Assembly (NCBI GenBank): GCA_021432655.1
Contig: MU271360.1
Location: forward strand, 62,001-83,555
Source of the DNA: Atractiella rhizophila
Lineage: Eukaryota
DNA: 21,555 bases
Reading direction: 5' to 3'
Part shown: one piece after another, positions 730 through 21,487 of the stretch
How positions within the stretch are numbered: the stretch's first letter is position 1
How the letters are laid out: every line of letters starts with the position of its first letter
Notes under the pieces: model-generated
What the model was told of the DNA's origin: nothing
Seen by the model: the letters and a program-made list of their open reading frames with translations, nothing else
The model's database searches: none
Program-made: the position numbers and the translations under genes

Positions 730-1766
730 TCAAATTCGTGCCTGCAGACCCTCTCTTTCACCCAACTGCAAAAATTCCACCACCTTGTCAATCAACTTCA
801 CTGCCGCGCTTTCGATATGAACACGATGGTCGGCGCCTTCCAGAACATAGGTTGTCAATACTCCTTTGGCGGCGGCGCGAGTCCACCTCTCGATTAGCTG
901 AGGTTGGACTGTCTTAATATTCGGTGTGTATTCGTCTTCTCCACTGAAGAGCGCCAAAACTGGAATATGAGGGGGGAGTTGTCCAAACGTCTGTGAGATT
1001 GCGCGATGGTCATCGCCTGTGTCTGGCAGAGAGACGGAAAAGTAATCGTCGTCTCCTCCAACGCAGAAGAGGGAATAAGCACGATAAACGCTCACTCCGA
1101 CCCCGAAGAGGACGTCGCAGGCTTCTTGTGGCGCGATCGTCTTGTGCTCTGTTCCTTTCGCTTTGCACTCTGCGTACAAGGCTGCGAGCTCGGATGCGAG
1201 AGAAGGGCTGACGGGGAAACCTTCACGGTCGGAAACTGATTGATGGAAAGTGTAAGAAGCTGTAAGGGTTTTGAGTCCAAAGAAACACACCTGGTGCGTG
1301 AAGAATGGCTTTTTTGATTGAATCGGTAGATTTGTTCAGTAAATAGTGTATCGTATCCTGAGAACCGGTTGAATGACCCATCAAAACGATCTCGTCCTTG
1401 CCTGTCCCAGACTTAAAGGATGAGAGTTATAGACTACATACGACATGAAAACTGACCAATACGCTTTAGATACTCGACTGCCCACTCGATCTCGTCCACA
1501 TCTCTATCCAAAGAGCCACGAGCAAATCCCTTGTAAGCAGAGCTCAAATGAGGTTGAGCAAGAGCCCATCCTTCATTCTTCAACCTTTCAGAAAGAGGGG
1601 CAGTCCAGGGAACAGTCGACAGTCCGTCAAATAATCCGGGAATGAAGACGAGGACTTTCTTGGACTCCAAAGATCCTGAGAGGAAGAGAGGAAGCGGGAT
1701 GAGGACATCTGGAGGTGTGTAGGTGTGCAGCTCGCCAGCAACTGGAGTAGGAGCGGAGGTCAACAT
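730..1766 (-). CDS. DUF1749 / UPF0613-family alpha/beta hydrolase, 3 exons
   Basis: LVFIPGLFDGL, SSAYKGFARGSLDRDVDEI, nucleophile elbow IVLMGHSTGSQD (middle exon, about 1291-1402), ILHAPVSDRE, GGDDDYFS, LFSGEDEY, EGADH; two GT-AG introns keep the frame. Confidence 0.85.
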
Positions 1767-2142
1767 TGTGAGGTCAAAGCTGGTTTAATTTCTGCTACCT
1801 GTGATATGAACAATAAGTATACACGTCTCGGTAGTTGACCCAGTGCGAACAACTCAACAATGGAACTCACCGAAGGCGCCTTGAATATCCTCAGAAAACA
1901 ATACAGCAGCTGGTCAAGAATACAACACACAAATTTTACACTACACAAATCCTATGACAGACCTGCACCAACTATGTTAGCTGGTTGTTGGTTGAAGCTC
2001 TCTTTCGTGATCATGGAGGTGAGGGCGGGCGGAAGTCTAACTCCAATGAAGTTAGGCGTCGCTCAGTTGTACGTTGTGCGTACGCGCCATCAGATCAATC
2101 CTGTTAAGTTGCAGCTGCATCATCCAGTTCAATCAATCAGCC

Positions 2143-3175
2143 ATGTCTCCTCCTGAGTTCTCTTCTAGACCCCAGGTAAGACTATCTCCGTAGATTAGCT
2201 GCAGTGATCAAATCCTGGGAAGGGCGACATCATCTGCCTCTTCGACGTCGATGGCACACTCACGCCTGCCAGGCGAGAGGTCAGCCCTGAAATGCTGCAA
2301 TTGCTTCAAGACGCGCGCAAGAAGATAGTCATTGGATTCGTCGGTGGTTCCGACCTTGCGAAGCAGCGGGAGCAGCTGGGGGAGAAAGGTGAGCTTCCTC
2401 ATTTCGTTCTTGGAATGTTGGGTAACTTGTTGGGCGGTTGGGTTTGAAGTTCTTGAACTCTTCGACTTTTGCTTCTCCGAGAATGGACTCACGGCTTACA
2501 AGCTCGGGAAGGAGTTTGCGTCCCAGTCTTTCATTGGACATTTGGGTGAGGAGCGATATGCCAAGATGGCGCGCTTTATCCTTCGCTGGCTTTCCGATCG
2601 CACCGATATTCCTATCGTTCGGTTAGTCTGTTCGTATCTTTGTTATCTGACATGTTAATGGAGGAATCGCAGAGGAACGTTCATAGAGTTCAGAAACGGC
2701 ATGATCAATGTTAGTCCGATTGGCAGGAACGCCTCTGTTCAGGAGAGGAATGACTTTGAGGAGTTTGATAAGGTATGCCCTACTCAAATCTTCTTCAGAT
2801 TGATACATAGATCAAACGTGGAATATTAGAAAGCTGGTGTGCGAAAGGCGCTGGTAGAAGCGTTACAAAAGGAATTCGCTGATTATGGCCTAACGTATTC
2901 GATTGGCGGTCAGATCTCCTTCGATGTCTTCCCTACCGGTTAGTCCCCCACCCAATCCTTTATGCTTAACGCTTACTCTAGCATGACCAGGTTGGGACAA
3001 AACTTATTGCCTGCGACACATTGAGAACGAGAACTTCAAAGAGATTCATTTCTTCGGAGACAAGACTTTCAAAGGAGGGAACGATTACGAGATCTATGAG
3101 GACCGTAGGACGATTGGACATTCGGTCAAGAACCCAGAAGAGACAATGGAGATTTTGAAGAAACTCATTTCTTGA
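2143..3175 (+). CDS. SEC53: Eukaryotic phosphomannomutase (HAD IIB), copy A, canonical motifs; 6 exons, 254 aa
   Basis: [29 protein letters not shown]...[15 protein letters not shown]...[10 protein letters not shown]...[24 protein letters not shown]...[22 protein letters not shown]...[18 protein letters not shown]...TIGHSV; five introns; TGA at 3173-3175. Confidence 0.95.
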
Positions 3176-3612
3176 TGGTTGTAGCATCTTTGGTTGAACG
3201 CAAATTTGGGCAATGGGATCAAGTAAATACGTCACACAAAAGCATGGGAACGCATAGACTTTCAAAGTATTCTATCAACTTGAACTATTTGTCTAGTTAG
3301 CCGCATTAGGCACAAAAAGCACAAAAAGTTATCGCCTTAAAGAAGAAAAGGTTTTGCTAAGTGCCATTCGGTTCCCGGTCCCGTGGAACGGTTCCCCTAA
3401 CTTCCTCCGCAGACGCGTTGGACCATCGTTTTCGTGCTTATTCGTGCTCAGCGTTTCGTCCCCACCTGCTTACTTGGAGCGAATGATTACCTTCTGGCTT
3501 CCGCACGCAGTTTGACAGCGTCTTTCGACCATAATGTGCCACAGAATCAGCCTCATGCTCCTGATCTTTTCCAAGCGGGAGTCAAGACCGCGTGACCCCT
3601 TCGAGAGCCCCT

Positions 3613-3618
3613 TATAAA
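3613..3618 (+). promoter_or_regulatory. Putative TATA box of the GH3 gene
   Basis: TATAAA about 125 bp upstream of the ATG at 3741; motif match only. Confidence 0.35.
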
Positions 3619-3740
3619 GCCACCAGGTGGTGGTTGCATATCTTCTTCCCGCCAGCGGAGAGAGCATCAAAGCTCGTTCATTCCTCGAGGCCGCATACCC
3701 ATTTTAGTCGGATACCTTGGAGTTGTTATCAATATCCGAG

Positions 3741-6557
3741 ATGACCTTCCTTCCCACTCTCCTTCTGCATCTCCTACCCCTCTCCATCATCGGGGTAGGT
3801 GCACAAATCACTCCCCGCACATGGGACGAAGCAAAGTCGTTGGCTGCTGCCACGATTTCATCCTTGACTTTGGAAGAGAAGGTGGGGTTGATGTATGGCC
3901 TGGGACAATTTGGCTCTCAATGCGTCGGGAACACCCACGCTGTCACCCGTGTTGGCTTGCCTTCTATCTGTTTGAACGATGGACCTGCCGGTGTAAGGTT
4001 GGTCGATTTGGTCTCTGCATTTCCAGCAGGTGAGTTCCGCTTGAGTTGGCGGCCTGAATGTAACTGACTGGATGCTTCGATAGGCATCAATGCTGCCGCT
4101 ACGTGAGTCCAATATCTTGCGAATGTGAAGAAACTGAAACCAAGGGAAATGATAGCTTCAACCGGGATTTGATCAGACAAAGAGGAGTGGCTATTGGGGA
4201 AGAGTTCCGAGCGAAAGGTGCGTAGAATAATCTCACCAAGACCAGCACTCTTACCGATGGATGGCAGGAATCCATGTTTTCGCACGTTGCTACCTTTGGT
4301 ATCCTTTACATAAGTCTTATCATGTCCTTATCTAGCTGGGTCCCGCTATCGACCCAATGCGTTCTCCTGAAGGAGGGCGTGCCTGGGAATCCTTTGGAGC
4401 TGGTCTGCATGTTTTCACCAAAACTACATGGTACTAACTTTGTACCACAGATCCATGGCTTAATGGCGAAGGCGGATTCGAAACGATTCAGGGTGTTCAA
4501 AGCGTGGGAGTACAAGCAGTAGCCAAACATGTGGGTTCTTCTCCTTACTCTTCAACCTTGGCTTGAAGTGTGAATCTTACCACCGCGAAATGGGGTGTTT
4601 TCACAGTTTCTCGCCTACATCCAAGAACATTATCGATTCACCTATTCTGCTGAAGTCGACAATCGGACTCTGCACGAGATCTATTGGCAGCCATATCTGA
4701 GGGCTATCGACGCTGACGTCTCGAGCGTCATGTGCATGTACAATCGCTTCAACGAAACTTACGGGTGCGAAGATCCGTTCCTCATCGGTGAAGGTGGCCT
4801 TCTAAAAGGTTAGCCTGCCTCCTAAGTACTACCTAAAAGAGTGGCTCAACCGTTGTTTCTAGGCGAAGGAGGATTCCAAGGCTATGTAATGTCAGATTGG
4901 GGAGCAAGTCATGGGAGCGCACAGTCGACCGTACAAGCAGGATTGGATATGGAGTGAGATCTGGTCTCATCATCTTACAGCCTTCCAATCGCTGACTTTC
5001 TGTCGCACAGGCAACCAGGTGATTGGATCCTCGTAGGAGGAGGAGTGTATGCCGGCCTCGCGAGCGTCTTCACAGGTGGTAGCCTACTCGATCAGGTGAA
5101 AAACGGAGCTGTATCTGAAGCGCTCATCGACAGCATGACGACTCGGTATCCGTTTTCATTTGCCTTCCATANNNNNNNNNNNNNNNNNNNNNNNNNNNNN
5201 NNNNNNNNNNNNNNNNNNNNNNNNNNNNNNNNNNNNNNNNNNNNNNNNNNNNNNNNNNNNNNNNNNNNNNNNNNNNNNNNNNNNNNNNNNNNNNNNNNNN
5301 NNNNNNNNNNNNNNNNNNNNNNNNNNNNNNNNNNNNNNNNNNNNNNNNNNNNNNNNNNNNNNNNNNNNNNNNNNNNNNNNNNNNNNNNNNNNNNNNNNNN
5401 NNNNNNNNNNNNNNNNNNNNNNNNNNNNNNNNNNNNNNNNNNNNNNNNNNNNNNNNNNNNNNNNNNNNNNNNNNNNNNNNNNNNNNNNNNNNNNNNNNNN
5501 NNNNNNNNNNNNNNNNNNNNNNNNNNNNNNNNNNNNNNNNNNNNNNNNNNNNNNNNNNNNNNNNNNNNNNNNNNNNNNNNNNNNNNNNNNNNNNNNNNNN
5601 NNNNNNNNNNNNNNNNNNNNNNNNNNNNNNNNNNNNNNNNNNNNNNNNNNNNNNNNNNNNNNNNNNNNNNNNNNNNNNNNNNNNNNNNNNNNNNNNNNNN
5701 NNNNNNNNNNNNNNNNNNNNNNNNNNNNNNNNNNNNNNNNNNNNNNNNNNNNNNNNNNNNNNNNNNNNNNNNNNNNNNNNNNNNNNNNNNNNNNNNNNNN
5801 NNNNNNNNNNNNNNNNNNNNNNNNNNNNNNNNNNNNNNNNNNNNNNNNNNNNNNNNNNNNNNNNNNNNNNNNNNGAGAACAAAGTGGGCCATCACTAGTT
5901 GATGTTCTCTGGGGAAACTGTCAACCCGAGCGGGAGACTACCTTACACTGTGGCCAAAGCAAGGGCAGATTATCCAACCGGTTCGTATTGTCCCTTCCCT
6001 GCGACATCCCCTGCTGATGGAGCAACTAGATATTCTCTACTTCTCCTTCGACGCCTCTCCTACCATTCAATTCACCGAGGGCCTCTTCCTAGATTATCGA
6101 CACTTTGATTCCGCCTCCATAACTCCACGCTTCGAATTTGGCTTTGGACTCTCATACACCACCTTCCAGTATTCAGGTCTCTCCATATCCGCCTCGGGCG
6201 ATGGCGCCACCATCTCGTTCACCATCGCCAATACTGGAACAGTAGCCGGTAGAGAAGTCCCACAGGTGTACCTCGCCTTCCCATCCGGCAGCGGGGAGCC
6301 TCCTCAGCTGTTAAGGGGGTTTGACAATGTCTTGATTGCCGCCGGAGCGAAACAACAGGTGACGATTTCACTTCGGAAGCAAGACTTGCAGTGCGTATTC
6401 TTTCATTTGCTTGTTAATAGGAAATGCGGGAATAACGAGTTGTGGATGCGACAGGATATGGGATAACAGCGCTCTCGCCTGGGTCAGACCTGCAGGGACG
6501 TTTGGAGTCCGTGTTGGTGCTTCAAGTCGGGATATTCGGCTTACGGGGCAGTTCTGA
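3741..6557 (+). CDS. Secreted glycoside hydrolase family 3 beta-glucosidase with C-terminal Fn3-like domain; middle hidden in an N gap; apparent 1-nt frameshift near 5916
   Basis: Signal-peptide-like [79 protein letters not shown], nucleophile motif [77 protein letters not shown] at 6555-6557. Confidence 0.92.
5172..5874. other. Assembly gap (703 N)
   Basis: Run of N inside the GH3 gene. Confidence 1.
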
Positions 6558-6940
6558 GTTCTTGGATGGGAATAATATGGCAATCTTGTTTATTTGGTAC
6601 AGTTGAGTTCGGTGGTAAGAGAATTGGTGTATCACTAAATATATCCAAAGAAAAAGGAGCACAATGGCCTTTAAAACCTTTGAGAAAGAACTTTGAGTTT
6701 TGAAACAGTTAGTGAAGGTGAGGACGAACTGTTTGTCCCACTCAGCATCCAGCCTTGACTATCCCGCGACCTTCCTTTACCATATGATGTGAGATTATGG
6801 GCTCTTCGACCAATATCTAGTTCTTTTGTCCAGGCAGCTCAGGATCAGGATATTGTTGAGTCTTTCTCGTTGTACTGCCCTTTCGACTTAGTGAAGCTCG
6901 ACCCAGCGATCTGACTGCTCGATCCCATCCTTTCGGCTAA

Positions 6941-7961
6941 TCATTTTGTGCTCGACGGAGTAACCATCTGCACCACGATACGATTAATCCAATGTAAAAC
7001 AAAGGTATCGTAAGAAGGAAATGGAAGGGAGGAAAGGGAAACTCACGATCCATTGCTTTATCGCCTCTTCGACTCCTTCCGCCGATGGCGTCTTTGCAAC
7101 GATAGGGACGGACAATCCTTCCTCCTCTTCGAGATACTTTCGGGTTGTCCCTCCAATCGCTCCTACTACCAACTCTAGTTCTGGTGATTTATGGTTTTTG
7201 AAGTGCTCTTGTGTGAGTGGGAGAGCGACCCGTGCGGAAGAAGGTGAGAAGAAGAGGGCTATCACTCGTTCGTCGCTCGAGGAAGGCGGAGAGATAGCCT
7301 GGAAGGAGGATTTGAGGGATTCGATGTCTGGGGAGGTAGAATAAACTTGAATCTCGTCCACTTCGTGTCCTGCCTCTCGAAGGAGACTGGAGAACAGTGG
7401 AGAGTTCTTGTCTCCCACTAGATATATGAATCCTTCTCCTCCGTTTGATTCGTTCCCATGTTCAAGGTCATGATCCTGGCGGCTTTCGTGCTTGGATCCT
7501 GCGTCGGATGCTAGCCGAGGAAACGTAGCAAGAATATGTCGAGCCAAAGCCTCCGAACTGCCACTCGTTTCTCCCTCCACTTCCCCTTCTTCAGGCCTGA
7601 TTTCCTCCGGCAAGCCCATCAGAGCTCTTTTGGTCGCAGGTCCCACGACGAAGAATTTCCTTCCTGTATACCTTTTTAATGACGATGCCTCTTCCACATT
7701 TAATAAAGAAGTAGATTGATCGAATAAGGCCAGTTTATAAGCTTCTACAGCGCGAGGGCTGGTGAACACTACATTTCTGTTTCTGTCGCCTCCTTCCGCG
7801 ACCAATACGTCTCGCAAGTGGGAGAGGTTGCAGAACTGGGTGCTGAGGACGGGTATGTAGGATGTGCGGATGGTGTGAGGCAACGGGAGGGACAGGGAGA
7901 GATAGTCGTCTTTCGAGTTGGAGGGGGATGGCGACTTGAAAAGGAGAAGGTGGAGGTGCAT
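6941..7961 (-). CDS. HEM4: Uroporphyrinogen-III synthase (HemD/Hem4); exons 7961-7047 and 6967-6941
   Basis: LLLFKSPS..SKDDY, YIPVL, VVFTSPRAVEA, FFVVGPATKRAL, GETSGSSEALARHIL, YLVGDKN, EIQVYST, FFSPSSA, GAIGGTTRKYL, VAKTPSAEGV; GTGAGT...CAG intron 7046-6968. Confidence 0.9.
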
Positions 7962-8209
7962 TTGTCCACCCAACCTTGGCTTTTGCTAGCTTTTGGCCTT
8001 CGCCAAATTAAAAAGCTTGTGCCTCGATCAAACCTTCCGAAACATAGTATTGTGGAGTGGAGCCATACTATTCTCGCACTTGTACAGACAAGATAGAGTA
8101 GAAGCCTCCATGCACTTTACGACATGAGTGTAGACCTTATGTCAAATGGGGCGGGTAGCAGGAATGAGGAGGTGGAATCGCTCTTCCATTTTCAGGTCTA
8201 CAATAACAA

Positions 8210-9546
8210 TCACAACTTCCTTCCACCAGCAGCAACAAGCCTTGCGATCTCTGTACCCCAACAAATCGTGAGCGTCAACATCATCCTCGCAGTCGCGATA
8301 CAAGCACAAAGAAAGAAAAGGGAAACCTACGTTCACTCTTAATTTCCTCTCTCTTGCCTCCCCCAGTAGAAACAACAACGGTATTCCATTGATTCTCTGG
8401 AATATTATACCACTCTCCATCCTTTGTCCAGCTTAGCTCTTCAGTTAACTCAGAAATCTTAGCATCGCTCTCTTCTGCAGCACCAAGCCAAGAAATCAAC
8501 ATCAGGTTTTGTCCACAACGACGGTATGGCGGACGCACCAAGGCCGAGCCAGCGCGCGAGACGTGAAGAGGAGATACGGGAGAACGTTCCTTCTATCTCC
8601 TTCAAAATGTTCTTCCGCACCCTAACACCAATATCAATCAATAACGCGAGAGAGTGTGAACGATGGCCAACGCACCCTTTCTCGAACCCCTCGATATCCT
8701 CCATGTAACCACTCCGTACACCAGTGCACTCTTCGCTCCGTAGATATGCCCAGAACTGGGGGAAATGGCGCGCTTGAAGATGCGATGAGAGAGGTGGTAG
8801 TGGAGCTAGCGGAGGTGAGATCTGTTTCGAGGATACGAACCACTTGAGTATCGGCTTTCAAGAAAGGGATATGAGACATACGGAGGAGAGAAGGGAGAGG
8901 GCGAGGGAGAAGTCTGGGGAGAAAGGGTTTGAAGAGAGGGTGAGGAGAAGGATGTTGAGTATAACTTCAGTCGAGCTCAGTTCAGGGTTGAACTGATACC
9001 TACATACGATATCGCACAACCAGTCATTCTCCCAATGTCATGTACAGATTAAGAGAGAACTTACAGCTTGAGAATTGCCAAATTAGCTAATGCATCGTAC
9101 TGCGTCGTTCCTTTCAGCTGCTCCAGCAAATACGCTTCGAGGATTCCAACGTTGTTGGGATTGTACCTGTCTACTGAGTTTATGAGCGTGGAAATGAGGT
9201 CGGAGCGGGTCGAAAAAAAAAAAAAAAAAAAAAAAGAGGAGAAGGATGTTGAGTATAACTTCAGTCGAGCTCAGTTCAGGGTTGAACTGATACCTACATA
9301 CGATATCGCACAACCAGTCATTCTCCCAATCTCATGTACAGATTAAGAGAGAGCATACAGCTTGAGAATGGCCAAATTGGCTAATGCATCGTACTGCGTC
9401 GTTCCTTTCAGCTGCTCCAACAAATATGCCTCGAGGATTCCAACGTTGTTGGGATTGTACCTGTCTACTGAGTTTATGAGCGTGGAAATGAGGTCGGAGC
9501 GGGTCGATGGTGCGTGCCAGGCCTCCAGCGACGGCGCGAGCGACAT
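8210..9546 (-). CDS. EIF3K: Translation initiation factor 3 subunit K (PCI domain), multi-exon; assembled sequence contains an internal 272-bp duplication
   Basis: MSLAPSLEAWHAPSTRSDLISTLINSVDRYNPNNVGILEAYLLEQLKGTTQYDALANLAILKL|YQFNPELSSTEVILNILLLTLSSNPFSPDFSLALSLL...GFEK|VRKNILKEIEGTFSRISSSRLARWLGL; last exon ends IARLVAAGGRKL*; the VDRYNP and ANLAILKLYQFNP motifs are typical of eIF3k. Confidence 0.9.
8942..9507. repeat. Direct duplication of 272 bp (8942-9213 and 9236-9507) separated by an A run (9213-9235)
   Basis: Hand alignment: 8 substitutions, no indels. Confidence 0.95.
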
Positions 9547-9688
9547 CTTCAGGAAGATCTTCAAGGGAGTTCAATGTTCAGGTACCGTAGCCTGAGAGTG
9601 AGAGGAGGACGAGATCGAAAATTTCTGGGTTCGTGGTTTCGGCGTTCGCGACAACGTGAAAGAGGAAGAACAAACTAAACCAAGGAAG
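9547..9688. promoter_or_regulatory. Probable compact bidirectional promoter between eIF3k and NDUFB11
   Basis: Only 142 bp between the divergent start codons at 9546 (-) and 9689 (+). Confidence 0.55.
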
Positions 9689-10291
9689 ATGTTGTCGCGT
9701 CTAGCTGTACGGCAGCCTTTAAGTGCCACTTGGAGGGTGGGAGGGAGGAGACATGCGTCTTTTAATGCTGGGTTCAACCCACCAACCGGTTCGTTCCTTT
9801 CCCACATATGTCCAGCAGCGCAGGTTGGGTGGTGATGCTTTTCTGGATGCTGGATTGTGTAGGTTATTTGTGGGGAAAGAAACCGTCAGAGAGAGAAGTG
9901 AAAGAGGGATGGGAGGCTTTATGGTACTTTGGTTTCTATGGAGGAACTGCCTTGGTTATTCCCTTCCTCGTCTTTCGACCGGGAGAAGAGTGAGTTTCCC
10001 TTCCTTCGTTCGAACCCCGTATCTCCTTACACATGAGCCGGTTGCTGATGTCACAATGCGTTGATAGTGGTATGTTTGAAAACATAGACACCATGCCCCT
10101 GCCAGACGGGAGCAAGTATAAGGTGGAAGAGGCGCGGTGGATGAAGGAAGTCAAAGGTTTGTATCTCTATTCTCTTCTCGGCTCTGTCTGTGCTCTCGAT
10201 AGAATGGCTACTGAATATGCTTAATGTGTTGGGTATAGATGAGCTAGAGAGGAGGGAGAAGGCTAGAGCGGCGTATGCCAAAGGAGAATAA
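9689..10291 (+). CDS. NADH:ubiquinone oxidoreductase ESSS subunit (NDUFB11-like), 4 exons
   Basis: Spliced: MLSRLAVRQPLSATWRVGGRRHASFNAGFNPPT|GYLWGKKPSEREVKEGWEALWYFGFYGGTALVIPFLVFRPGE|DGMFENIDTMPLPDGSKYKVEEARWMKEVK|DELERREKARAAYAKGE*; Arg-rich mitochondrial presequence, NPPTGYLWGxKP and KEGWE motifs, one TM helix; three GT-AG introns. Confidence 0.8.
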
Positions 10292-11010
10292 ATACAATGC
10301 CGCTTCATAAAAGTCTCTTGAACCGATTCGAGCACATTCTTCCAGCCTTTGCCTATACTCTGCTCCTCTTGACGCTCGACGCTCAACGGTAAAACGCACC
10401 CCTTAGCTCGCATCCAGCCAACGAACCTTTCATCATGCGCAGCCAATGAAGCCGCCGTAGACGTCTTTCCAAGTTCCTCTCGTTTGTGCCGAACGACGAG
10501 CTTGGAATCTCTTTGTTGCTACTTCAAGTCCATGATCAATCGAATGGGCAGACTGGGAATGAAAGGCATGAGAGCCTCTCCCATTTTGCCTTAGCCGTCC
10601 TCTCCGTCGTCAGTCGGGTTTCCATGTGTTAGCCGAACTGGACAATCTCCTTCCAGAGCCGAGGCCGTCGAATTCCCACACGGTCAGACTCTGATACTTG
10701 TTTCTTCAGGGCTGTCCTGCAGAGTGATGTCCTCCATTTCTGCTGCCTCGTACCTTACTTGTACACGGATTGAACGACATGGCCAAAATTTAGTATAGAT
10801 ATTGAACGACGCCATTTCTCTCCCGGTTTGTATGTAATCAGCACTGGTGCACTTGGTAACCCTCAGAATCAATGTCTGCATATAAACTTTGGGAAATATT
10901 ACTCAGATTTACCATACGCTATAATGCTCTGAACAGGTAGCCCTCTTTCTTCGAATTATGACATTCTCTCCACCCGGCTTCAACCAAATATCTTGTATGT
11001 GTACATTGAC

Positions 11011-14000
11011 GGATAGTTCTCATGACATCGCAATGATTCTGGTAGAAAAAATGCGACACCTGCAAGTCAATTTCTTGGTAGAATGTGATTACAAAATACA
11101 CACCATTTTGTAATATCTCAAACACATTTATGTTATTGCTTAGCTAGCTAGCTTCAGGATGTGTGCGTCACTTGCTACTTCACTCTGAATACAAACCAGC
11201 TAAGAATTTAAGCTTGATTTTTGAAAAAGTTTAATGTGTGGGGTATGTCGAGTAACAGGGAAGAGTAACGGTGTACAACGCGGTAGTGGGTCGTGAACAT
11301 TTACATGGAAATGGCAAAGAAGATCTCTAATTTTCGCCGCGTGTGAATGTGTATTGCATTCTGACAGTTCCCAGCAGAAACTGGGCAAGGGATCCTCAAA
11401 ATATGAGGGAGGAGATCGGGATAGTAGGTGACAGCAAAGAAAAAGAAAGAAGATAAAAGCTGTCATTGAATTGAAAAGTAAAAACGAGTTGAAACGGAGA
11501 AAATAGGAAAAGAAATGGACAATTTGAGAAGCGGAGGACAAATGAAAAAGATGCACGAAAATTTCGACAGGTGAAAAAACTGCATTCACTAGCTGTCCAC
11601 TGCATGAGTCTATCAAGTCCAAACTTCCGTCTTCAAGGCGTCATTAAAGAGACGGAGCATGAGGTCATGACTTCCCATATCTGCGCTATACTTTATGGAG
11701 CCATTCGGACCACCTGACGCGTCGTAGGGATCTACCCAGGATTTGAGCGAATTCCCACCCCGGTAGCAGCTCAGAGCTCCCATCATTGCATCGAGGAGTG
11801 TTGTAAGAGACCGAGACTTAAGTCGCAGCTCTTGTGCACATTCACGGTCGCGTATGAGGAGTTTTTTCAGTCGCGCCGCCCTTTTTGGGTCGGGGTCGTC
11901 AAAGAATTCGAGCGTCATTTTGTTCTGATCGTCCGCCGTTGTAGGTGCATATTTGGCTGCTATCCAGTAAAGAACCCAGGCGAAGGACTCTAAGTCGTCC
12001 TGAAGTTCATGCTTGACCGCCACTGGATTCCCCATGTCTTCCAGGAGTCGTATAGACAAGAACTGGTACGTTCCCTGCCAGTCTGCTTAGATCTCCATTG
12101 CGAAGTGAGGTGGTGAACAACGAACCATCCTTTCGTTCATCCCAGGGTCCGTCATTGTTTCGGCCTTGGCTGACTCCCAATCAATGAGGAAACCGCCCTC
12201 GTCTGCATCTGCCGCATTCAATACGATATTCCCAGCAGAAATATCACGATGTAGAATGCCTGCCTTCTCAAAAGCTTCCTTGTGAGCTTCCGCTACGGTG
12301 AGCATCATCATCTGTCTCGATTGGACGGACTTACCCATCAACGCATCTCTAACAGCCACCACCAGTTCCCTCTCCGTTCTGAAATCCGCTAAAGATCTTC
12401 CCACGCGGTCCAGGACGAGTCGGGAATGACACAGAACTTTCTTCTTCTCCTCACCTGACCTACCTTTGTACTTAAAAGTCGCACGCTGAGAATCGCTTCC
12501 CTCCTTGACATCCCCATAGGCGACGACGTTGAGCAAGTTCGGAACACCAGCATTTTTCAATTTCTCATAAACTTTACCCTCGTCTTCGTACGCCTCGTCC
12601 CTCCACGAGTCCTTGAGAACGACAGCTCGGTCTGATTCCTCGTCATAGGCAACGAAGCACCTGGTGCCACGTCCGAGAGGAAAATGATGAGCCCTCGTGA
12701 ACTCACGGTGAAGCAAGAACGTCTTCTTTGCGACTTCAACGGAAAAGACAGAGTGGAGGGATTCACTGGGGACCTTCAAGATATCCTTGATCTGGAGAGA
12801 TTTGCCTTTTTTCGTGGCTAGGTCGACGGGAGTGAAGGATGTATCGAGGCCTCGTTCGTGTTCTTTTGCGTGCATGAATCGCCAAAGGAATTGTTGGAGA
12901 TGGTCTGTGTCCTCGAGCGAGAACGAAACCGAGACCTCTGCACAGGCTCGCGAGTGACGGATCAGACGGCAGGTTTCACCGTGAATGAAGAAGGAGAAGA
13001 CCCTGGTTCGAAACTGGCGGGCTTGAATGACCGTGTTGTACAGTGTGATTTGGCCGCGAATGAGCTTCCCCTCCAGACTGGACGTCTCGAATTTGGTAGC
13101 GTCATCGTTGAAAGCAACTCCAGTCATTCCCTTCGTCTTCTCCCCGTCTGTCGACTTATACTCCTTGAATTCTCCAAACAGCACGGCGCGCCTCATGTCA
13201 CAGATCTTTCGGTGTGAGTTGTTGCTGGTGGATTCTTCGTCATAATAGAGAGTTATGTCTGGTTTAACGGACTCCGCCCCGAAGATTCCGAGCGTGTCGT
13301 TGTCAGGATGGGTCGACGTATTGACGAGACTCCAACTACCCCTATGATCGCTCGCTTGCTTCAGCATGGGGCTGAGGGTAGCTATCTGTAGCGGCATGTC
13401 AGCACATTACTCTTGCTGACAGCATCAACAAAGGGTTCAGGGTGGGTGGCAAGTGGATGCTTGACATATCTCGTTCGATGACGAGTCGACCTAGGCGACA
13501 TAGCGCGAAGCCCGACAGGCGAAGGGGAAAAACTAACTTCTTTGGCACGTAAAACAATCACTCACTAATTGATCGTATTTCTGCGGCCCAGTTGCCTTTT
13601 CATCCAGTTTCACTTTCATACTCTCGTTGAACTCCTTTGGTGCCTTCGGTAAGTACGCGAGAAACTCCTAAATAGTCACCTTCACAAACCTCCCCTTCAT
13701 CTCCCGCTCTGCCTGCGCGTAACTCTTGTTTTCATCTGTCAATGTGAAATATCCTATTTCCCCTGAGCGGCTGCGGCTAGTTGGCGTGCCTGAAGCGTTA
13801 GAGGTTACCCTGGTAGGTAAGCTTTGTTGTTCGGGTGGCGTGGACGGCCTACGCGAGGTGTGAGATGTTGGACTGGGAGGCATCGCGAACGGATTGATGG
13901 CAGGTGGTGTGTCGAGATGGGCGAAGGAACAGGGTTAGGAGATGAGGAGACGGAGGATGAAAAAGAGAGGGAATGAAGGTAGAAGAAGCGGAAGCGCCTA

Positions 14001-14851
14001 TAGATGTTGACGAAAATGAATCTGTGCCTCTTCAAACCAATGTCTGACTCCAAATAAGTGCTATGCCGCTCCTGATGCTCAAGGGATAGATCTCAAGACA
14101 TCACAGTGATTCTGATAGAAAAGAAATGCGACATGTCTGAGCTTGGTAAAATGTCATTATAAAATACACACGTTGATATCTCATTGGGTTATCGCTTAGC
14201 TAACTGCACGACATGCGCGTCACTACTACTTCACTTTGAATACGAATTAGCTAAGAATTTAAGCTTGATTTGAAAGGTTGAATACATGGGGTACGTTGAC
14301 TAACAGGGTAGAGTAACAGTGTACAACTCAAGAGTGAGTCGTGAACATTCACAAGGGAGTGGCAAAGAGGATCTCTAGTGTTGCCCACGGCCCCACCAGA
14401 AACTAGGCCGAGGATCAAAATAGGAGGCAGGAGATCGGGATTGTAGGTACCCCCATAAAACAACAAATAAGAGAAAAGCTATCAATGGAATTGAAAATCA
14501 AAAATGAGTTGAACGGATAAAATGGGAAGAGAAATGGAAATCTTGAGAAGCATAAACCAACTGAAAAAAGGTGCACAAAAAGTTTCTACAACGTGAAAAC
14601 TGCATTCGCTAGCTGCACATTGCATGAGTCCATCAAGTCCAAACTTCCCTCTTCAACGCGTCGCTAAAAGAGACGGAGCATGAGGTCATGACTTCCCATA
14701 TCTGCGCTATGCTTTATGGAGCCATTAGGACCACCTGACTCGTCATAGGGATCTACCCAGAATTTGAGCGAATTGGTACTCAGGTAGCAGCTCAGAGCTC
14801 CCATCACTGCATCGAGGAGTGTCGTGAGAGGCCGAGATTTAAGTCGCAGCC
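11011..14851. repeat. Diverged direct duplication of about 0.8 kb: about 11011-11831 versus about 14084-14851 (kinase 3' exon plus about 600 bp of downstream flank)
   Basis: Shared blocks such as cagctaagaatttaagcttgattt/tagctaagaatttaagcttgattt, gtcgtgaacatt, ggagatcggga, aactgcattc, tgcatgagtc and tcaagtccaaacttcc; coding part about 90% identical by eye, flank lower with indels. Confidence 0.9.
11613..13883 (-). pseudogene. Fungal-type protein kinase (FunK1 / Pkinase_fungal family), kinase domain intact but in-frame TAG at 13668-13670 in exon 1
   Basis: KPDITLY, FGEFK, RGQITLY, QFRTRVFSFFI, GRGTRCFVAYD, VVLKDSWR, HSRLVL, ILHRDISAGNIVL, FLIDWE, ERM|GTYQFLSIRLL, HELQDDLESFAWVLYW; introns about 13565-13386, 12334-12287 and 12125-12075; exon 1 reads EMKGRFVKVTI*EFLAYLP...KYDQL. 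Confidence 0.8.
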
Positions 14852-14859
14852 TCTGTCCA
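14633..14859 (-). pseudogene. 3' fragment of a second FunK1 kinase copy, with a +1 frameshift; runs into an N gap
   Basis: LRLKSRPLTTLLDAVMGALSCYLSTNSLKFWVDPYDESGGPNGSIKHSADMGSHDLMLRLF aligns to copy 1; an extra T (CTC TTT T AGC) gives TAG at 14664-14666. Confidence 0.8.
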
Positions 14860-14884
14860 NNNNNNNNNNNNNNNNNNNNNNNNN
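14860..14884. other. Assembly gap (25 N)
   Basis: Run of N; kinase homology does not resume beyond it. Confidence 1.
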
Positions 14885-15275
14885 TCATTTCAGGACAGAG
14901 CGCAAGAGATTCGCATAGCACCTGGTGAAAAGCTGTAAGCAGGTCTACTGTCAGGGTTGTTGACCTGGAAGATGCGGTTTTCTGCAAGCATTCATCAGCA
15001 GCTTCGATCTCAATGTTTCTAGCTGATGCTGCACTAGAAATGGCTGCTGGAGAAGGCCATCGGGCATCGCGTACCAGATGAATGTGGTTTACGAGCATAT
15101 GCCTTGGAATGTCTTCCATTCCCTGCCCAATTCTGAGCCAGCGCTTGCCCACGCCAGCTTGAGGATCGAAACGGAAGGGAGAACGACTCAAATGACTGTC
15201 TCTCTTTGCGATTTCATCATAGTACAACACCATGCGTCCAATCAATCAGTCATCATTGAATCCACCTCAGCTTAA
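14885..15275 (+). CDS. Possible 3' end of an unidentified gene
   Basis: A GTAAGC...CTGAT...TAG intron (14935-15037) joins SFQDRAQEIRIAPGEKL in frame to NGCWRRPSGIAYQMNVVYEHMPWNVF...IIESTSA*; no family recognised; an open frame also exists on the minus strand. Confidence 0.25.
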
Positions 15276-15419
15276 CGTAGTTCCTCGTTCCTGCACCGTT
15301 GTCTGACCTCAGCCGTCCCTGGTGGTGATGCTTGCGGTAGGTTGCTCGGGTAAAGCCGAAAACGCGACGTGTCGCGTTGTTCATCACGACGCAGCTGCAA
15401 CTCGCCCAAACTGACCAAA

Positions 15420-16589
15420 ATGATGCGCCAACTGCTCTCCTTCCTGCTCTTCCTGCTCTTACATACCCTCTACGCGTTCTCCCGCCTAATCTCTTACCTC
15501 TCCCACCTCCTGTTTTCCTCCGACCCCAACCAACATTTTTCATTAGACACAGTCGACGTTGGGACGTGGCTGAAGGCGGAGAAGAGGTTGAGACACCTCG
15601 CTATTTCCCTCGATACTGCTCCTAGTTATAGAAATGGGAGGGTAAAGGAGAGGGAAAGGGAAAGGGCAGTTAGGACGGCTTGCAGAGCTGTTGAGTGGGC
15701 TATAGAGATCGGAGTGGAGAGCTTAGCTCTTTTCGATCCGTCAGGTACGCTTCCTTCCTCAACGTGTCTGCGGTATGAGTTATGGGGGTTTCATTGAGTT
15801 GAAGACACTGGCTAATCGGTGCTCTGTGGCGACAGGTGTTTTCGAGCACTATGCTGAGCAAATAGCAGCAGCGGTTCCCGCAGCCAGACTCGTCACAACT
15901 GCAGAAAGGAAAGAGAAGGAGAAGGAAGAAGAGGCGCCGTACACCACTCTGCAAATCGACCATCCAACCTTCCTCTCCCTCTCCGAACCCCGACGACGGA
16001 CTCCTCGTTCTGTATCCCTCTCCAAATCCACCTCCACCTCCACAACCCATTCCTCCTCCTCCTCCTCCTCCGATTCCACAGCTCCTTCTTCCCTCCCATC
16101 CGCCTCGTCCTCTCCAACACCCCTCCTCACCATACACCTCCTTTCTCCCCGAGCCTCAAAACCATACCTAGCTCAAATCACACGGTCCCTCCTCTCTCGC
16201 TCCCCTCCTCTAGATTGGAGTGACATAGACATTCGAACCATTGATGCGGAGTGGAAGCTTCCCGAACCGGACTTGTTGGTCGTCTTGGGAGGCGAGAGTT
16301 GTACACTGAGAGGCTTCCCAGCGTGGGGATTGAGGTTGTCTGAAATCTTGTAAGCCTTCCTTCCTCAACCTTGCCTACGTTCCCATCTCCATCCGTATGC
16401 CATCCTGTGTTTTGTGTTTTCCTCGCAGACCCGGTCTAAAAGCGAGATGGATGATGCTGATGACTACCTTGTGTGTTGATGGGGATGGGATGGAATAGCC
16501 ATTCGAAACGACAGCAGGAGTTGGATGTGACGACGGTGAAGGAAGCTATGGCTGGATTCTTACGTTCAGAGCAGAGAGTGGGGAAGTAA
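15420..16589 (+). CDS. NUS1: NUS1 / Nogo-B receptor-like subunit of dehydrodolichyl diphosphate synthase; exons 15420-15744, 15836-16349, 16499-16589
   Basis: N-terminal hydrophobic segment, RHLAISL, AVEWAIEIGVESLALFDPSG, LTIHLLS..ASK, LPEPDLLVVLG, TLRGFPAWGLRLSEIF, C-terminal EQRVGK* (RxG motif). Confidence 0.88.
16051..16071 (+). repeat. (TCC)7 microsatellite encoding poly-Ser in the NUS1 low-complexity linker
   Basis: tcctcctcctcctcctcctcc within a Ser/Thr/Pro-rich stretch. Confidence 0.85.
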
Positions 16590-17113
16590 ATCTTTCCTAT
16601 CATTCAGCCTGTGGTGTGGCAGGGCCCCTGGGTAGAAGCAGGACATGCTCAGCAGCGACTCTACTAGTAATGGACATCATCATTTTGAACTAATAGATTT
16701 AGGAATGTTTCCCTGTAATTACAATGCATTCTGAGGCCGTCAACGAAAACTCCATTGAATACAGATGACTTGAGCTTTTGGAGAAAGGAAGATCATCTAG
16801 GGTAGAGTGTTGTGCTGTTACCTTTACCGAAGAAGCAACGATTGGAATTTGGAATGGGCAACAGCTTGACTTGAGGCGGGAAGTCGGAGCTTTTGATTTG
16901 TCGCTCTAAAACGTCGAGCGTCCTCGAAAACTCCTCTCCTCTCACTGTCATCTCAGCTGGTCAGCTTCTTTGGCCTAGCATTGACCGTATTGACCCCCCC
17001 AGCTAGATCTTGAGTTGTGACCGTCGCTTCAAGGTACGTTCCGTGTACGCGGCGAACGACTTCTTTGTCCTCCAGAGAGCTTCAGCGTTGAACTCAGCAC
17101 ATAGTAGTACGGC

Positions 17114-18199
17114 ATGGCACCCTCTGGCTTCTCTTCCAGGCCAAATGTAATGTTCTATGTATCCCGATCATTCTCACGACTGAGTGCTGCTGCATTGTGG
17201 CAGGGCAATATCATCATCCTCTTCGATGTGGACGAAACCCTCACGAAAGCCAGGCGGCTGGTAAAACCTGAGATGTTACAAGCATTAAAAGATTTGAGGC
17301 AGAAGTATGTCATCGGCTTCGTGGGAGGGAGTAATTTGGTAAAGCAGAAAGAGCAGTTGGGAGATAACGGTGCGTTCTCCTTGTAGTGCATAAAGGGAAC
17401 AGGATAGGATTTGATTGTAGCCGATAAACGTTTTGTGTAGTCCTTGAGTTGTTCGATTACTGCTTTGCGGAAAATGGACTCGTTGCCTACAAGCTGGGAG
17501 AAGAATTAGCTTCCCAATCCTTCATCAAATGGTTGGGAGAAGAGAAGTATGCAAAGATGGCGAGATTCATCCTTCGTTGGCTATCGGAGCGCACGGACAT
17601 CCCAATTGTGCGGTGCGCCAATCCTTCACCCTACTTTCGTCATTGGTATTGATGGAGAGATATGGGAGCAGAGGAACTTTCATTGAGTTCCGAAACGGGA
17701 TGATCAACGTCTCTCCCATTGGCAGGAACGCGAGTAACGAGGAGCGAGCGGCGTTCGAACAGTTCGATCTGGTCTGTTCCTTTCCTGACACCGTTGGGAC
17801 GAACTGATGGTGGTGCTCGGGATGGATGGTTATATAGAAAGCAGGAGTGAGAAAAGCTTTGATCGCAGCTCTGCAGAAAGAGTTTCCCGACTATGGCTTA
17901 ACATATGCGATTGGCGGGCAAATCAGCTTTGATGTCTTCCCTACTGGTTCGTCTTCACACGCCCACCTACTTCCCCACTGCTCTTCCGTTGCTCATTCTG
18001 GAAATACGTTATAGGATGGGATAAGACTTATTGCCTCAGGCACCTTGAAAAGGAAAATTTCAAGGAGATCCATTTCTTTGGTGATAAGACCTTCAAAGGT
18101 GGGAACGACTACGAGATCTACGAAGACGAAAGGACGATTGGACACGCCGTCTTGAACCCAGACGACACCTTAGCACAACTGAAGAAGGATTGGCTTTGA
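17114..18199 (+). CDS. Phosphomannomutase paralog, copy B, with non-canonical core motifs; 6 exons, 254 aa
   Basis: [29 protein letters not shown]...[15 protein letters not shown]...[10 protein letters not shown]...[24 protein letters not shown]...[22 protein letters not shown]...[18 protein letters not shown]...TIGHAV; same five intron positions as copy A; no stop or frameshift; TGA at 18197-18199. Confidence 0.93.
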
Positions 18200-18448
18200 T
18201 GAGAGTCTTTTTTTCTGGAGTGCCTTTCACATTGTTTTGTCCTCACTTAAGTTGAAATTCATGCTTGGATTCCCGATTGTGGAAATCGTGATATGTCAAG
18301 GATCAGGACGGGCTGATAGGTTCACTCCAAAGAATATCCTTGCAAGCATCTATCTTCGCAAGGGTCCAACGCGCGCGTAGGAAATGACCGCCTTGCGGTC
18401 CTATTGATACTCAGAGTCTCTCCGATTCCCAAAACTGTATTCCTTCGA

Positions 18449-20431: not shown

Positions 20432-21487
20432 ATGTCTTCGTTAGACAAACTAGAGAAAGAGGCTGGAGATGTTGCACAAGAGGTGACAGAGGGGAAGATT
20501 GAGTGTGTTGCTTCCCTTTTCTCCGAAAAGAAGTAGGCACTTGACAGTCACCATAATCTTGGACACCAGCACGAAGGACACGAAACTTCGCTACCTCGCT
20601 TTTTTCGCGCGTATCAGACCAATCGTTCAACCTGCAGCAAGATATTTTGCATACACCGTAAGTTTTTCCACTACTCAACGTTGCCTTGATGTGTGACGTA
20701 GTGGCTAGTCGGATGTCGGGGAAGCTTTCCGACCAGTTGTGAAGCCTGCTGTTGTCACTGGTGCTTATGGTATCTCTTGGCTCTACGTGCTGGGAGATGT
20801 TGCATACGAAGGCTAGTCTCATTATCTATTTTTAATATTCTCAGCTTGATGTGCATTACAGGCTACAAAGCCCACCGCTCGCTTCGGCCACCAATCCACC
20901 ACCTCCCCTCCTCCCATGGCTCGCTCCCCATCTCCATCCCCATCCTAAAGGACAAGTCTGACTCTCAGTTCCTCACAAGTGGGGAGAAGAACACTTTCAT
21001 TGGACTCAGAGTGGCAGAAAGAGCAGTCTTTCAGGCGACTGCCTCCATGCTGTTCCCTGCTCTTACTATCCATTCGTGCGTGCACTTTTCCTGCTCTTCT
21101 ATATTTCTGAGCTCCGAAGAACACGCGTTGTAACATTGATATCGCGCTGTATGGGTTTAGGGTCGTCAAGTACTCCGCGAAAGCTCTCAAGCGGTCCAAT
21201 GTTCAGTCTGCCTTCTTGAAAGCGTGGGGACCAACGTCTCTGGGGCTTCTCACGATCCCTGCGCTCCCCTTCATCTTCGAGTTTGCTCTCTCTTCACCAC
21301 CTTGATTACCGCTGATGACAAAATGATTTTCAATAGTGAACCCGTGGAGAAGGTGGTCTCTACCAGCTTCGGTAAGATTGAAGAGATGGTGTTGCATGAG
21401 GAAGTGAGGAGAAGATTGGAGCATCATTTGAAGGTTCAAGATATTAAGGAGAAAGAGAAAGAGCTAAAGAAGAAGGAGGAGTTGTAA
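20432..21487 (+). CDS. MTP18: Mitochondrial 18 kDa protein / mitochondrial fission process protein 1 (MTP18/MTFP1), 6 exons
   Basis: DTKLRYLAF, RYFAYT|SDVGEAFRPVV, AYGISWLYVLGDVAYEG, AERAVFQATASMLFPALTIHS, WGPTSLGLLTIPALPFIFD|EPVE; TAA at 21485-21487. Confidence 0.9.

Follow-up and report, generated by a model that had tools for sequence, protein, structure and literature searches.

The window analysed here is a 21,555-nucleotide stretch of the Atractiella rhizophila genome that contains two phosphomannomutase (PMM) genes, each modelled from the window with six exons on the plus strand and each encoding 254 residues. Copy A (2143..3175) comprises exons 2143-2175, 2223-2388, 2450-2621, 2673-2772, 2830-2938 and 2991-3175 and reads DVDGT, TLTPAR and GGSD at its motifs. 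Copy B (17114..18199) comprises exons 17114-17146, 17204-17369, 17441-17612, 17672-17771, 17838-17946 and 18015-18199, the last of which ends in a TGA stop codon at 18197-18199. Exon lengths are the same in the two genes (33/166/172/100/109/185), and every intron is bounded by GT..AG, including the five of copy B, which measure 57, 71, 59, 66 and 68 nt. At the protein level the copies are 79.5% identical (52 differences in 254 residues), and at the level of the coding sequence 70.7%. A sequence-only reading of this DNA had described two 254-residue PMM genes with the same intron positions and about 52 differences, and the gene models agree with it. It had also described copy B as free of any disabling lesion; the frame is indeed open, with GT..AG at all five introns.

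Three motif positions distinguish copy B from copy A, G22E, P26K and D55N, copy A having the majority states G22/P26/S32/D55. Glu22, within the motif I sequence DVDET, is encoded by GAA at 17234..17236 and is equivalent to Gly15 of human PMM2. Lys26, within TLTKAR, is encoded by AAA at 17246..17248, and Asn55, within GGSN, by AAT at 17333..17335, directly after the motif II serine and before the helix of residues 56-63. Lys32 (AAA, 17264..17266) is a further rare state common to copy B and the PMMs of the Pezizomycotina. All four codons lie on the plus strand, and the three codon changes that the sequence-only reading had listed are correct. Its statement that the catalytic residues are kept also stands, as both catalytic aspartates, the motif II serine, GDK/GGND, FRNG and QIS are present in copy B. 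Asp19, Asp21 and Thr23 of HAD motif I (DxDxT) occupy columns that are invariant in a 57-row alignment, and Ser54 in GGS and the FFGDKT..GGND block are likewise in place; columns G52, G53, S54, G202, D203, K204, G208 and G209 (P0001 numbering) are invariant in the same alignment.

The exons of both copies match PF03332, the eukaryotic phosphomannomutase family, with scores of 24.3 bits for exon 2 and 61.9 for exon 3 of copy B, and 311.3 bits for the public A. rhizophila protein P0001 where the cut-off is 22.4. An alignment of 184 PMMs has 90 columns with conservation of 95% or more; copy B keeps 89 of them, and the cap blocks FRNG, GRN and GGQIS are present. Its sole departure is S181A, at a residue (~17907-17909) that lies between the positions aligned to Arg180 and Arg183 of PMM1. 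Copy A also departs at one of the 90 columns (L42A), and at the columns that are at least 80% conserved copy B departs at 10 and copy A at 8, with 4 columns in common. Copy A itself is unusual at three positions, having Ala42, Phe89 and His97 where 97%, 88% and 82% of the 184 PMMs have Leu, Leu and Trp and where copy B has the majority states. Copy A is not simply the unaltered copy.

Both genes have counterparts among public A. rhizophila proteins. P0001, named eukaryotic phosphomannomutase at NCBI, is 98% identical to copy B exon 2 and differs from copy B by three substitutions over 240 shared residues. The public model of P0001 is without 14 residues across the exon 4-5 junction (window 17672-17946), a gap that suggests a wrongly placed splice site in the public annotation. 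The second A. rhizophila PMM, P0099, differs from copy A at one residue. In a collection of 5.8 billion proteins, none besides P0001 is more than 77% identical to copy B exon 2, and, P0099 being copy A, no other protein is more than 67% identical to the whole of P0001. The metagenomes yielded no copy B orthologue, the best 80 of 396 relatives of P0001 all being at most 67% identical. Copy B is so far known only from Atractiella; few Atractiellomycetes have been sampled, so its absence elsewhere is weak evidence.

Contigs assembled from four public RNA runs (X1, X2, X8 and X9, of which X2 is a metatranscriptome) were aligned to positions 2000-18400. The libraries hold spliced RNA, as X8, X1 and X2 contigs run across copy A without introns 2-5 and X9 contigs do so without introns 3-5. 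A poly(A) loose end follows position 3269, after copy A, in X8. The 3' ends of copy A introns 1 (2176-2222) and 2 (2389-2449) read AAG, which is less common there than CAG or TAG, and contigs of three runs confirm the joint at intron 2. Copy B is covered by contigs of all four runs. Two observations fit removal of copy B intron 5: an X9 joint from 17947 to 18017, the only copy B joint among the 15 listed of 42, and an X2 contig that resumes at 18014. Three differences are listed in copy B exon 2 in X8 (17263, 17285 and 17287), and all are synonymous.

The spacing of about 14 kb between the two genes, as originally reported, stands in part. Both copies are present in the window, but two runs of N separate them (5172-5874 and 14860-14884), and RNA-derived contigs bridge the first and not the second; the linkage rests on scaffolding. 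In the database, the contigs given for the two A. rhizophila proteins differ in length (29,023 and 83,555 bases). Near the second gap lies a partial second copy of a fungal-type protein kinase gene (Pkinase_fungal, ~11200-13406, minus strand), in which sequence from the 3' part of the gene (11011-11829) recurs at 14084-14850 with 78% nucleotide identity; the second copy abuts the 25-N gap, and one X8 contig joins 14856 back to 11853. The assembly there may therefore be unreliable. The 703-N gap at 5172-5874 lies inside a transcribed GH3-type gene with an Fn3-like domain, which spans it. Contigs of all four runs bridge 5145 to 5875 with 677 other letters, and thus the missing sequence is mostly exon.

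The remaining neighbours are a DUF1749 gene (730-1784, minus strand), HemD (6984-7985, minus strand), a CSN8/PSMD8-like gene on the route from copy A to copy B, and an MTP18-like gene (20702-21133, plus strand). The region of the CSN8/PSMD8-like gene contains a tandem 272-bp duplication with 97% identity (8942-9213 and 9236-9507). A 359-nt segment at 8995-9355, bounded by CT..AC and thus reading as a minus-strand intron, is skipped in contigs of three runs and covers the junction of this repeat. Among the neighbours of copy B within the window, nothing suggests a gene cluster tied to it. A segmental duplication that included flanking DNA was considered and rejected, as the flanks of the two copies are dissimilar and the gene alone is duplicated.

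In a maximum-likelihood tree of 62 PMMs, copy B is sister to copy A plus P0099 with support of 100/99. The codons of the two genes differ synonymously at 108 positions and non-synonymously at 52. The rate dN is 0.15-0.17, and dS is saturated at 1.5-2.9 (LWL85 1.48, ML 2.88); it is undefined by NG86, and neither NG86 nor YN00 gave a value because synonymous sites are saturated. The resulting omega of about 0.05-0.11 is a pairwise value taken over both branches rather than one specific to copy B. No conversion tract between the copies was found, the share of identical codons among conserved residues being 0.25-0.68 in every 30-codon window. Judged from these comparisons, copy B arose long ago by duplication of an A-like gene and has since been maintained by purifying selection; it is not an ascomycete transfer. 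Purifying selection shows that copy B has a function, not which one.

The same data bear on the possibility that copy B is redundant and drifting towards loss. Its branch from the duplication, at 0.28, is about twice that of copy A (0.13), and it differs from its A. rhizophila counterpart at three residues where copy A differs at one. Word depth in X8 contigs is also lower on copy B (79-243) than on copy A (1438), a contrast of limited meaning as contig depth cannot rank genes. Set against this are the open frame and five GT..AG introns, the low omega at saturated dS, the near-complete retention of highly conserved columns, and the transcription and splicing of the gene, so that decay is very unlikely. 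The sequence-only reading had named an unexpressed copy B with dN/dS near 1 as evidence against its own proposal; instead, copy B is transcribed and pairwise omega is far from that value.

The motifs of copy B also occur in other PMMs. Among the 98 database PMMs most like copy B exon 2, DVDET, Lys26 and GGSN occur together in 15, mainly from the Pezizomycotina (Periconia, Bimuria, Penicillium, Hypoxylon, Cephalotrichum and others, plus P0001). DVDGT/TLTPAR/GGSD is found in 40 of the 98, and DVDDT/TKPR/GGSN in six. The 184-PMM alignment, which holds fungal and other sequences, is enriched for B-like sequences and overestimates minority shares; in it, position 22 is Gly in 155 rows, Glu in 14 and Asp in 10 (29 rows are without Gly), position 26 is Pro in 151 and Lys in 17, position 32 is Ser in 132 and Lys in 16, and position 55 is Asp in 148 and Asn in 36. 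Every row with Lys26 belongs to the Pezizomycotina core set. The minimum number of changes on the 62-row tree is at least five for position 22, at least four for position 26 and at least eight for position 55. These counts contradict the earlier statement that DVDGT and GGSD are near-invariant. That reading had also held that commonness of DVDET/GGSN in single-copy fungal PMMs would tell against it, and, counted per protein, the pair is essentially that common.

The sequence-only reading had further suggested that gain of Glu in motif I and loss of Asp in motif II form a compensated charge swap, and here the evidence is divided. Residues other than Gly at position 22 tend to accompany Asn55; of five independent contrasts on the 62-row tree, about three run the same way and none the opposite way, an association that is not significant with only five contrasts (median p 0.25). 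Glu22 is, however, also paired with Asp55, in Lophium P0035, in P0071 and in Kalaharituber P0117, and in 5 of the best 80 metagenome loci. The existence of such proteins means that the G22E/D55N swap is not obligatory. Helix N-caps are commonly Asp or Asn, and in the AF2 model of P0001, where Asn55 directly precedes helix 56-63, either residue may serve as the cap.

The likeness of copy B to the Pezizomycotina extends beyond these motifs. Twelve rare states were defined as consensus in 18 core Pezizomycotina PMMs that no more than 5% of the 166 remaining rows share. Copy B has four of the twelve (Glu22, Lys26, Lys32 and Gln248) and copy A none. The other 166 rows mostly have none (132 rows) or one (26 rows); two states are found in six rows and three in one, and the single row with five is grouped inside the Pezizomycotina in the 62-row tree. 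The combination of Glu22, Lys26, Lys32, Asn55 and Gln248 is found in none of the best 80 of 396 metagenome relatives.

One explanation of this likeness is that copy B, or its motif-bearing parts, came from a Pezizomycotina PMM by horizontal transfer or conversion. Exon 2 of copy B is 77% identical to the Periconia PMM and about 68% identical to copy A, and four shared rare states are many when 164 of the 166 other rows have two or fewer. Yet the whole-gene tree joins copy B with copy A at high support, and forcing copy B into one clade with 21 Pezizomycotina rows is 38.9 lnL worse (AU p 0.013, for a group that was named after the tree was seen). Intron positions are identical in the two copies, GC3 is 0.59 in both, and the shared rare states are spread over two exons. 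Across 46 Pezizomycotina-specific consensus states, copy B has 13 and copy A has 9, which is only a small excess. Transfer or conversion from this source is thus scarcely credible.

Because the tree places copy B with copy A, the shared residues look like the parallel acquisition of a small set in or near the catalytic loop. It is conceivable, although rather doubtful, that copy B and the Pezizomycotina PMMs independently gained one coupled set, Glu22, Lys26, Lys32 and Gln248 together with Asn55, that tolerates or favours the Gly-to-Glu change. The corresponding human change is the PMM2 allele G15E. The sequence-only reading named it as reported in PMM2-CDG, and it is in print; PMC12042452 describes it in two compound heterozygotes and puts Gly15 in the beta1-alpha1 loop, which holds the Mg-binding Asp residues in position. 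If a coupled set was indeed gained twice, copies A and B would form a natural matched pair within one genome for dissecting epistasis, and the kinetics or regulation of copy B may differ from those of copy A as those of Pezizomycotina PMMs differ from yeast SEC53. If the epistasis is real, exchanging these residues between the copies would reveal which partner states render Glu harmless at this site, with consequences for the interpretation of PMM2-CDG variants.

The main alternative concerns activity. PMM1 of mammals also acts as a hexose-bisphosphatase, and the DxDET motif bears a likeness to FCP1/SCP-type HAD phosphatases. Copy B could accordingly be a neofunctionalised, PMM1-like phosphatase of sugar phosphates or hexose 1,6-bisphosphate, in which Glu22 and Asn55 would favour hydrolysis of the phospho-enzyme. 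Several observations favour such a shift. First, copy B has evolved about twice as fast as copy A since the duplication, and as an old duplicate it has been retained under selection. Second, its catalytic beta1-alpha1 loop (residues 19-32) has changed at three positions, residues 22, 26 and 32 all falling within this loop in the AF2 model of P0001 (pLDDT 90.4). Third, S181A departs from a serine present in 179 of 184 PMMs (97%), which is also a point against reading copy B as an isozyme. Membership of the FCP1/SCP family was not found, as Pfam returned only PF03332 plus a weak PF08282, and no FCP/SCP structure is among the Foldseek matches listed. The top matches of the P0001 model are PMMs, namely 5ue7 (TM 0.80), 6i5x (TM 0.92), 8b5v and PMM2.

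Human PMM1 is the nearest precedent for such a phosphatase, and its characteristic residues speak against this role for copy B. Arg180, Arg183 and Met186 of PMM1 are named in the mutant structures 6cfr, 6cft, 6cfs and 6cfu, and we take these residues to bind IMP and to govern the IMP-triggered phosphatase switch. Residues 3-35 of copy B exon 5 align to PMM1 chain residues 161-193 over equal lengths with no gaps, and the PMM1-type set is absent from copy B, which has Thr179, Ile182 and Gln185 at these positions, as does copy A. Thr, Ile and Gln are also what the mutants in 6cft, 6cfr and 6cfs have in place of the PMM1 residues.

The motifs themselves also count against a phosphatase. In the aligned sequence of 6i5x, an entry entitled 'Crystal structure of Aspergillus fumigatus phosphomannomutase', motifs I and II are DVDET and GGSN. 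PMC9603912 describes A. fumigatus PMM as indispensable, citing Zhang et al. 2021 (Mol Microbiol 116:245). An enzyme with Glu22 and Asn55 is thus a working, essential PMM, and since DVDET/GGSN is normal in an essential Aspergillus-type enzyme, the motifs of copy B do not point to a new function. Together with the 15 listed PMMs that carry the full triple, this makes a phosphatase role unlikely. The exact triple of Glu22, Lys26 and Asn55 is validated only by annotation in other Pezizomycotina, as 6i5x has Pro26. What survives of the sequence-only reading as a whole is an intact second PMM with G22E, P26K and D55N. Its suggestion that the motifs imply a phosphatase or regulatory function does not hold, in view of the same motifs in the essential A. 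fumigatus PMM and the absence of the PMM1-type residues.

A regulatory role would take a different form, in which copy B forms a heterodimer with copy A through the cap interface and tunes PMM activity or stability. PMMs dimerise through the cap, and PMC12042452 classes PMM2 residues 101-120 as dimerisation sites. Residues 101-140 of A and B are 93-97% identical although their synonymous sites have diverged as elsewhere, and the two copies have in common the rare states Met106 (Leu in 165 of 184 PMMs) and Trp113 (Tyr in 173 of 184). However, residues 101-140 are highly conserved in all PMMs, so that constraint on two separate homodimers explains the identity, and Met106 and Trp113 may predate the duplication. 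Copy B also keeps a full catalytic set, which a purely regulatory subunit does not need. A regulatory partnership with copy A is thus quite unlikely.

Copy B is paralogous to copy A, intact, under purifying selection, transcribed and spliced, and its Glu22 and Asn55 motifs are those of an essential, crystallised PMM. It is probably a second, functional PMM isozyme, and we infer mutase activity for it. As an ancient paralogue of the housekeeping, SEC53-type copy A, it would still be a HAD-type phosphomannomutase in which Asp19 is phosphorylated and Asp21 serves as acid/base, and it would interconvert Man-6-P and Man-1-P via a bisphosphate intermediate. Its role may have been split from that of copy A by expression or kinetics. 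G22E, P26K and D55N would not be lesions but the housekeeping PMM states of most Pezizomycotina, presumably gained independently by copy B after duplication from an A-like ancestor.

The locus offers a limited example of an essential gene, normally present once, whose duplicate has been retained. It is also a caution for motif-based calls, as a sequence that departs from the textbook DVDGT/GGSD is what a large fungal subphylum normally has. In this window a canonical PMM gene is accompanied by a Pezizomycotina-like one, and with them comes a possible compensated form of a pathogenic deviation (G15E). The only unusual aspect of copy B is the parallel, Pezizomycotina-like residue set; otherwise it belongs to a known family.

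Copy B can be compared with several known enzymes. Its closest relative is the SEC53-type copy A, represented by A. rhizophila P0099, a sister gene with six exons and the same catalytic and cap residues, which differs in its states at positions 22, 26, 32 and 55, in its own unusual residues and in its shorter branch. PMMs of Pleosporales and other Pezizomycotina, such as those of Periconia macrospinosa (P0002), Penicillium (P0024) and Hypoxylon (P0020), have Glu22, Lys26 and Asn55 as copy B does, and most also have Lys32 and Gln248. The commonest Pezizomycotina pattern at nine surveyed sites is the copy B state at seven. Unlike copy B, the Pezizomycotina PMMs are about 14 residues longer, have an overall identity of only ~62-68% to P0001, and display 33 further Pezizomycotina-specific consensus states that copy B lacks.

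A. fumigatus PMM resembles copy B in DVDET, GGSN, the PF03332 domain and fold (TM 0.92 to the AF2 model of the copy B counterpart P0001), with 61-62% identity. It has Pro rather than Lys at position 26 and is not phylogenetically close to copy B. It is also reported to be the indispensable PMM of its organism, whereas copy B exists alongside a canonical PMM. Mammalian PMM1 and PMM2 parallel copies A and B as two PMM paralogues in one genome, although the duplication is independent. Glu at the Gly15 site, pathogenic in human PMM2, is what wild-type copy B has.
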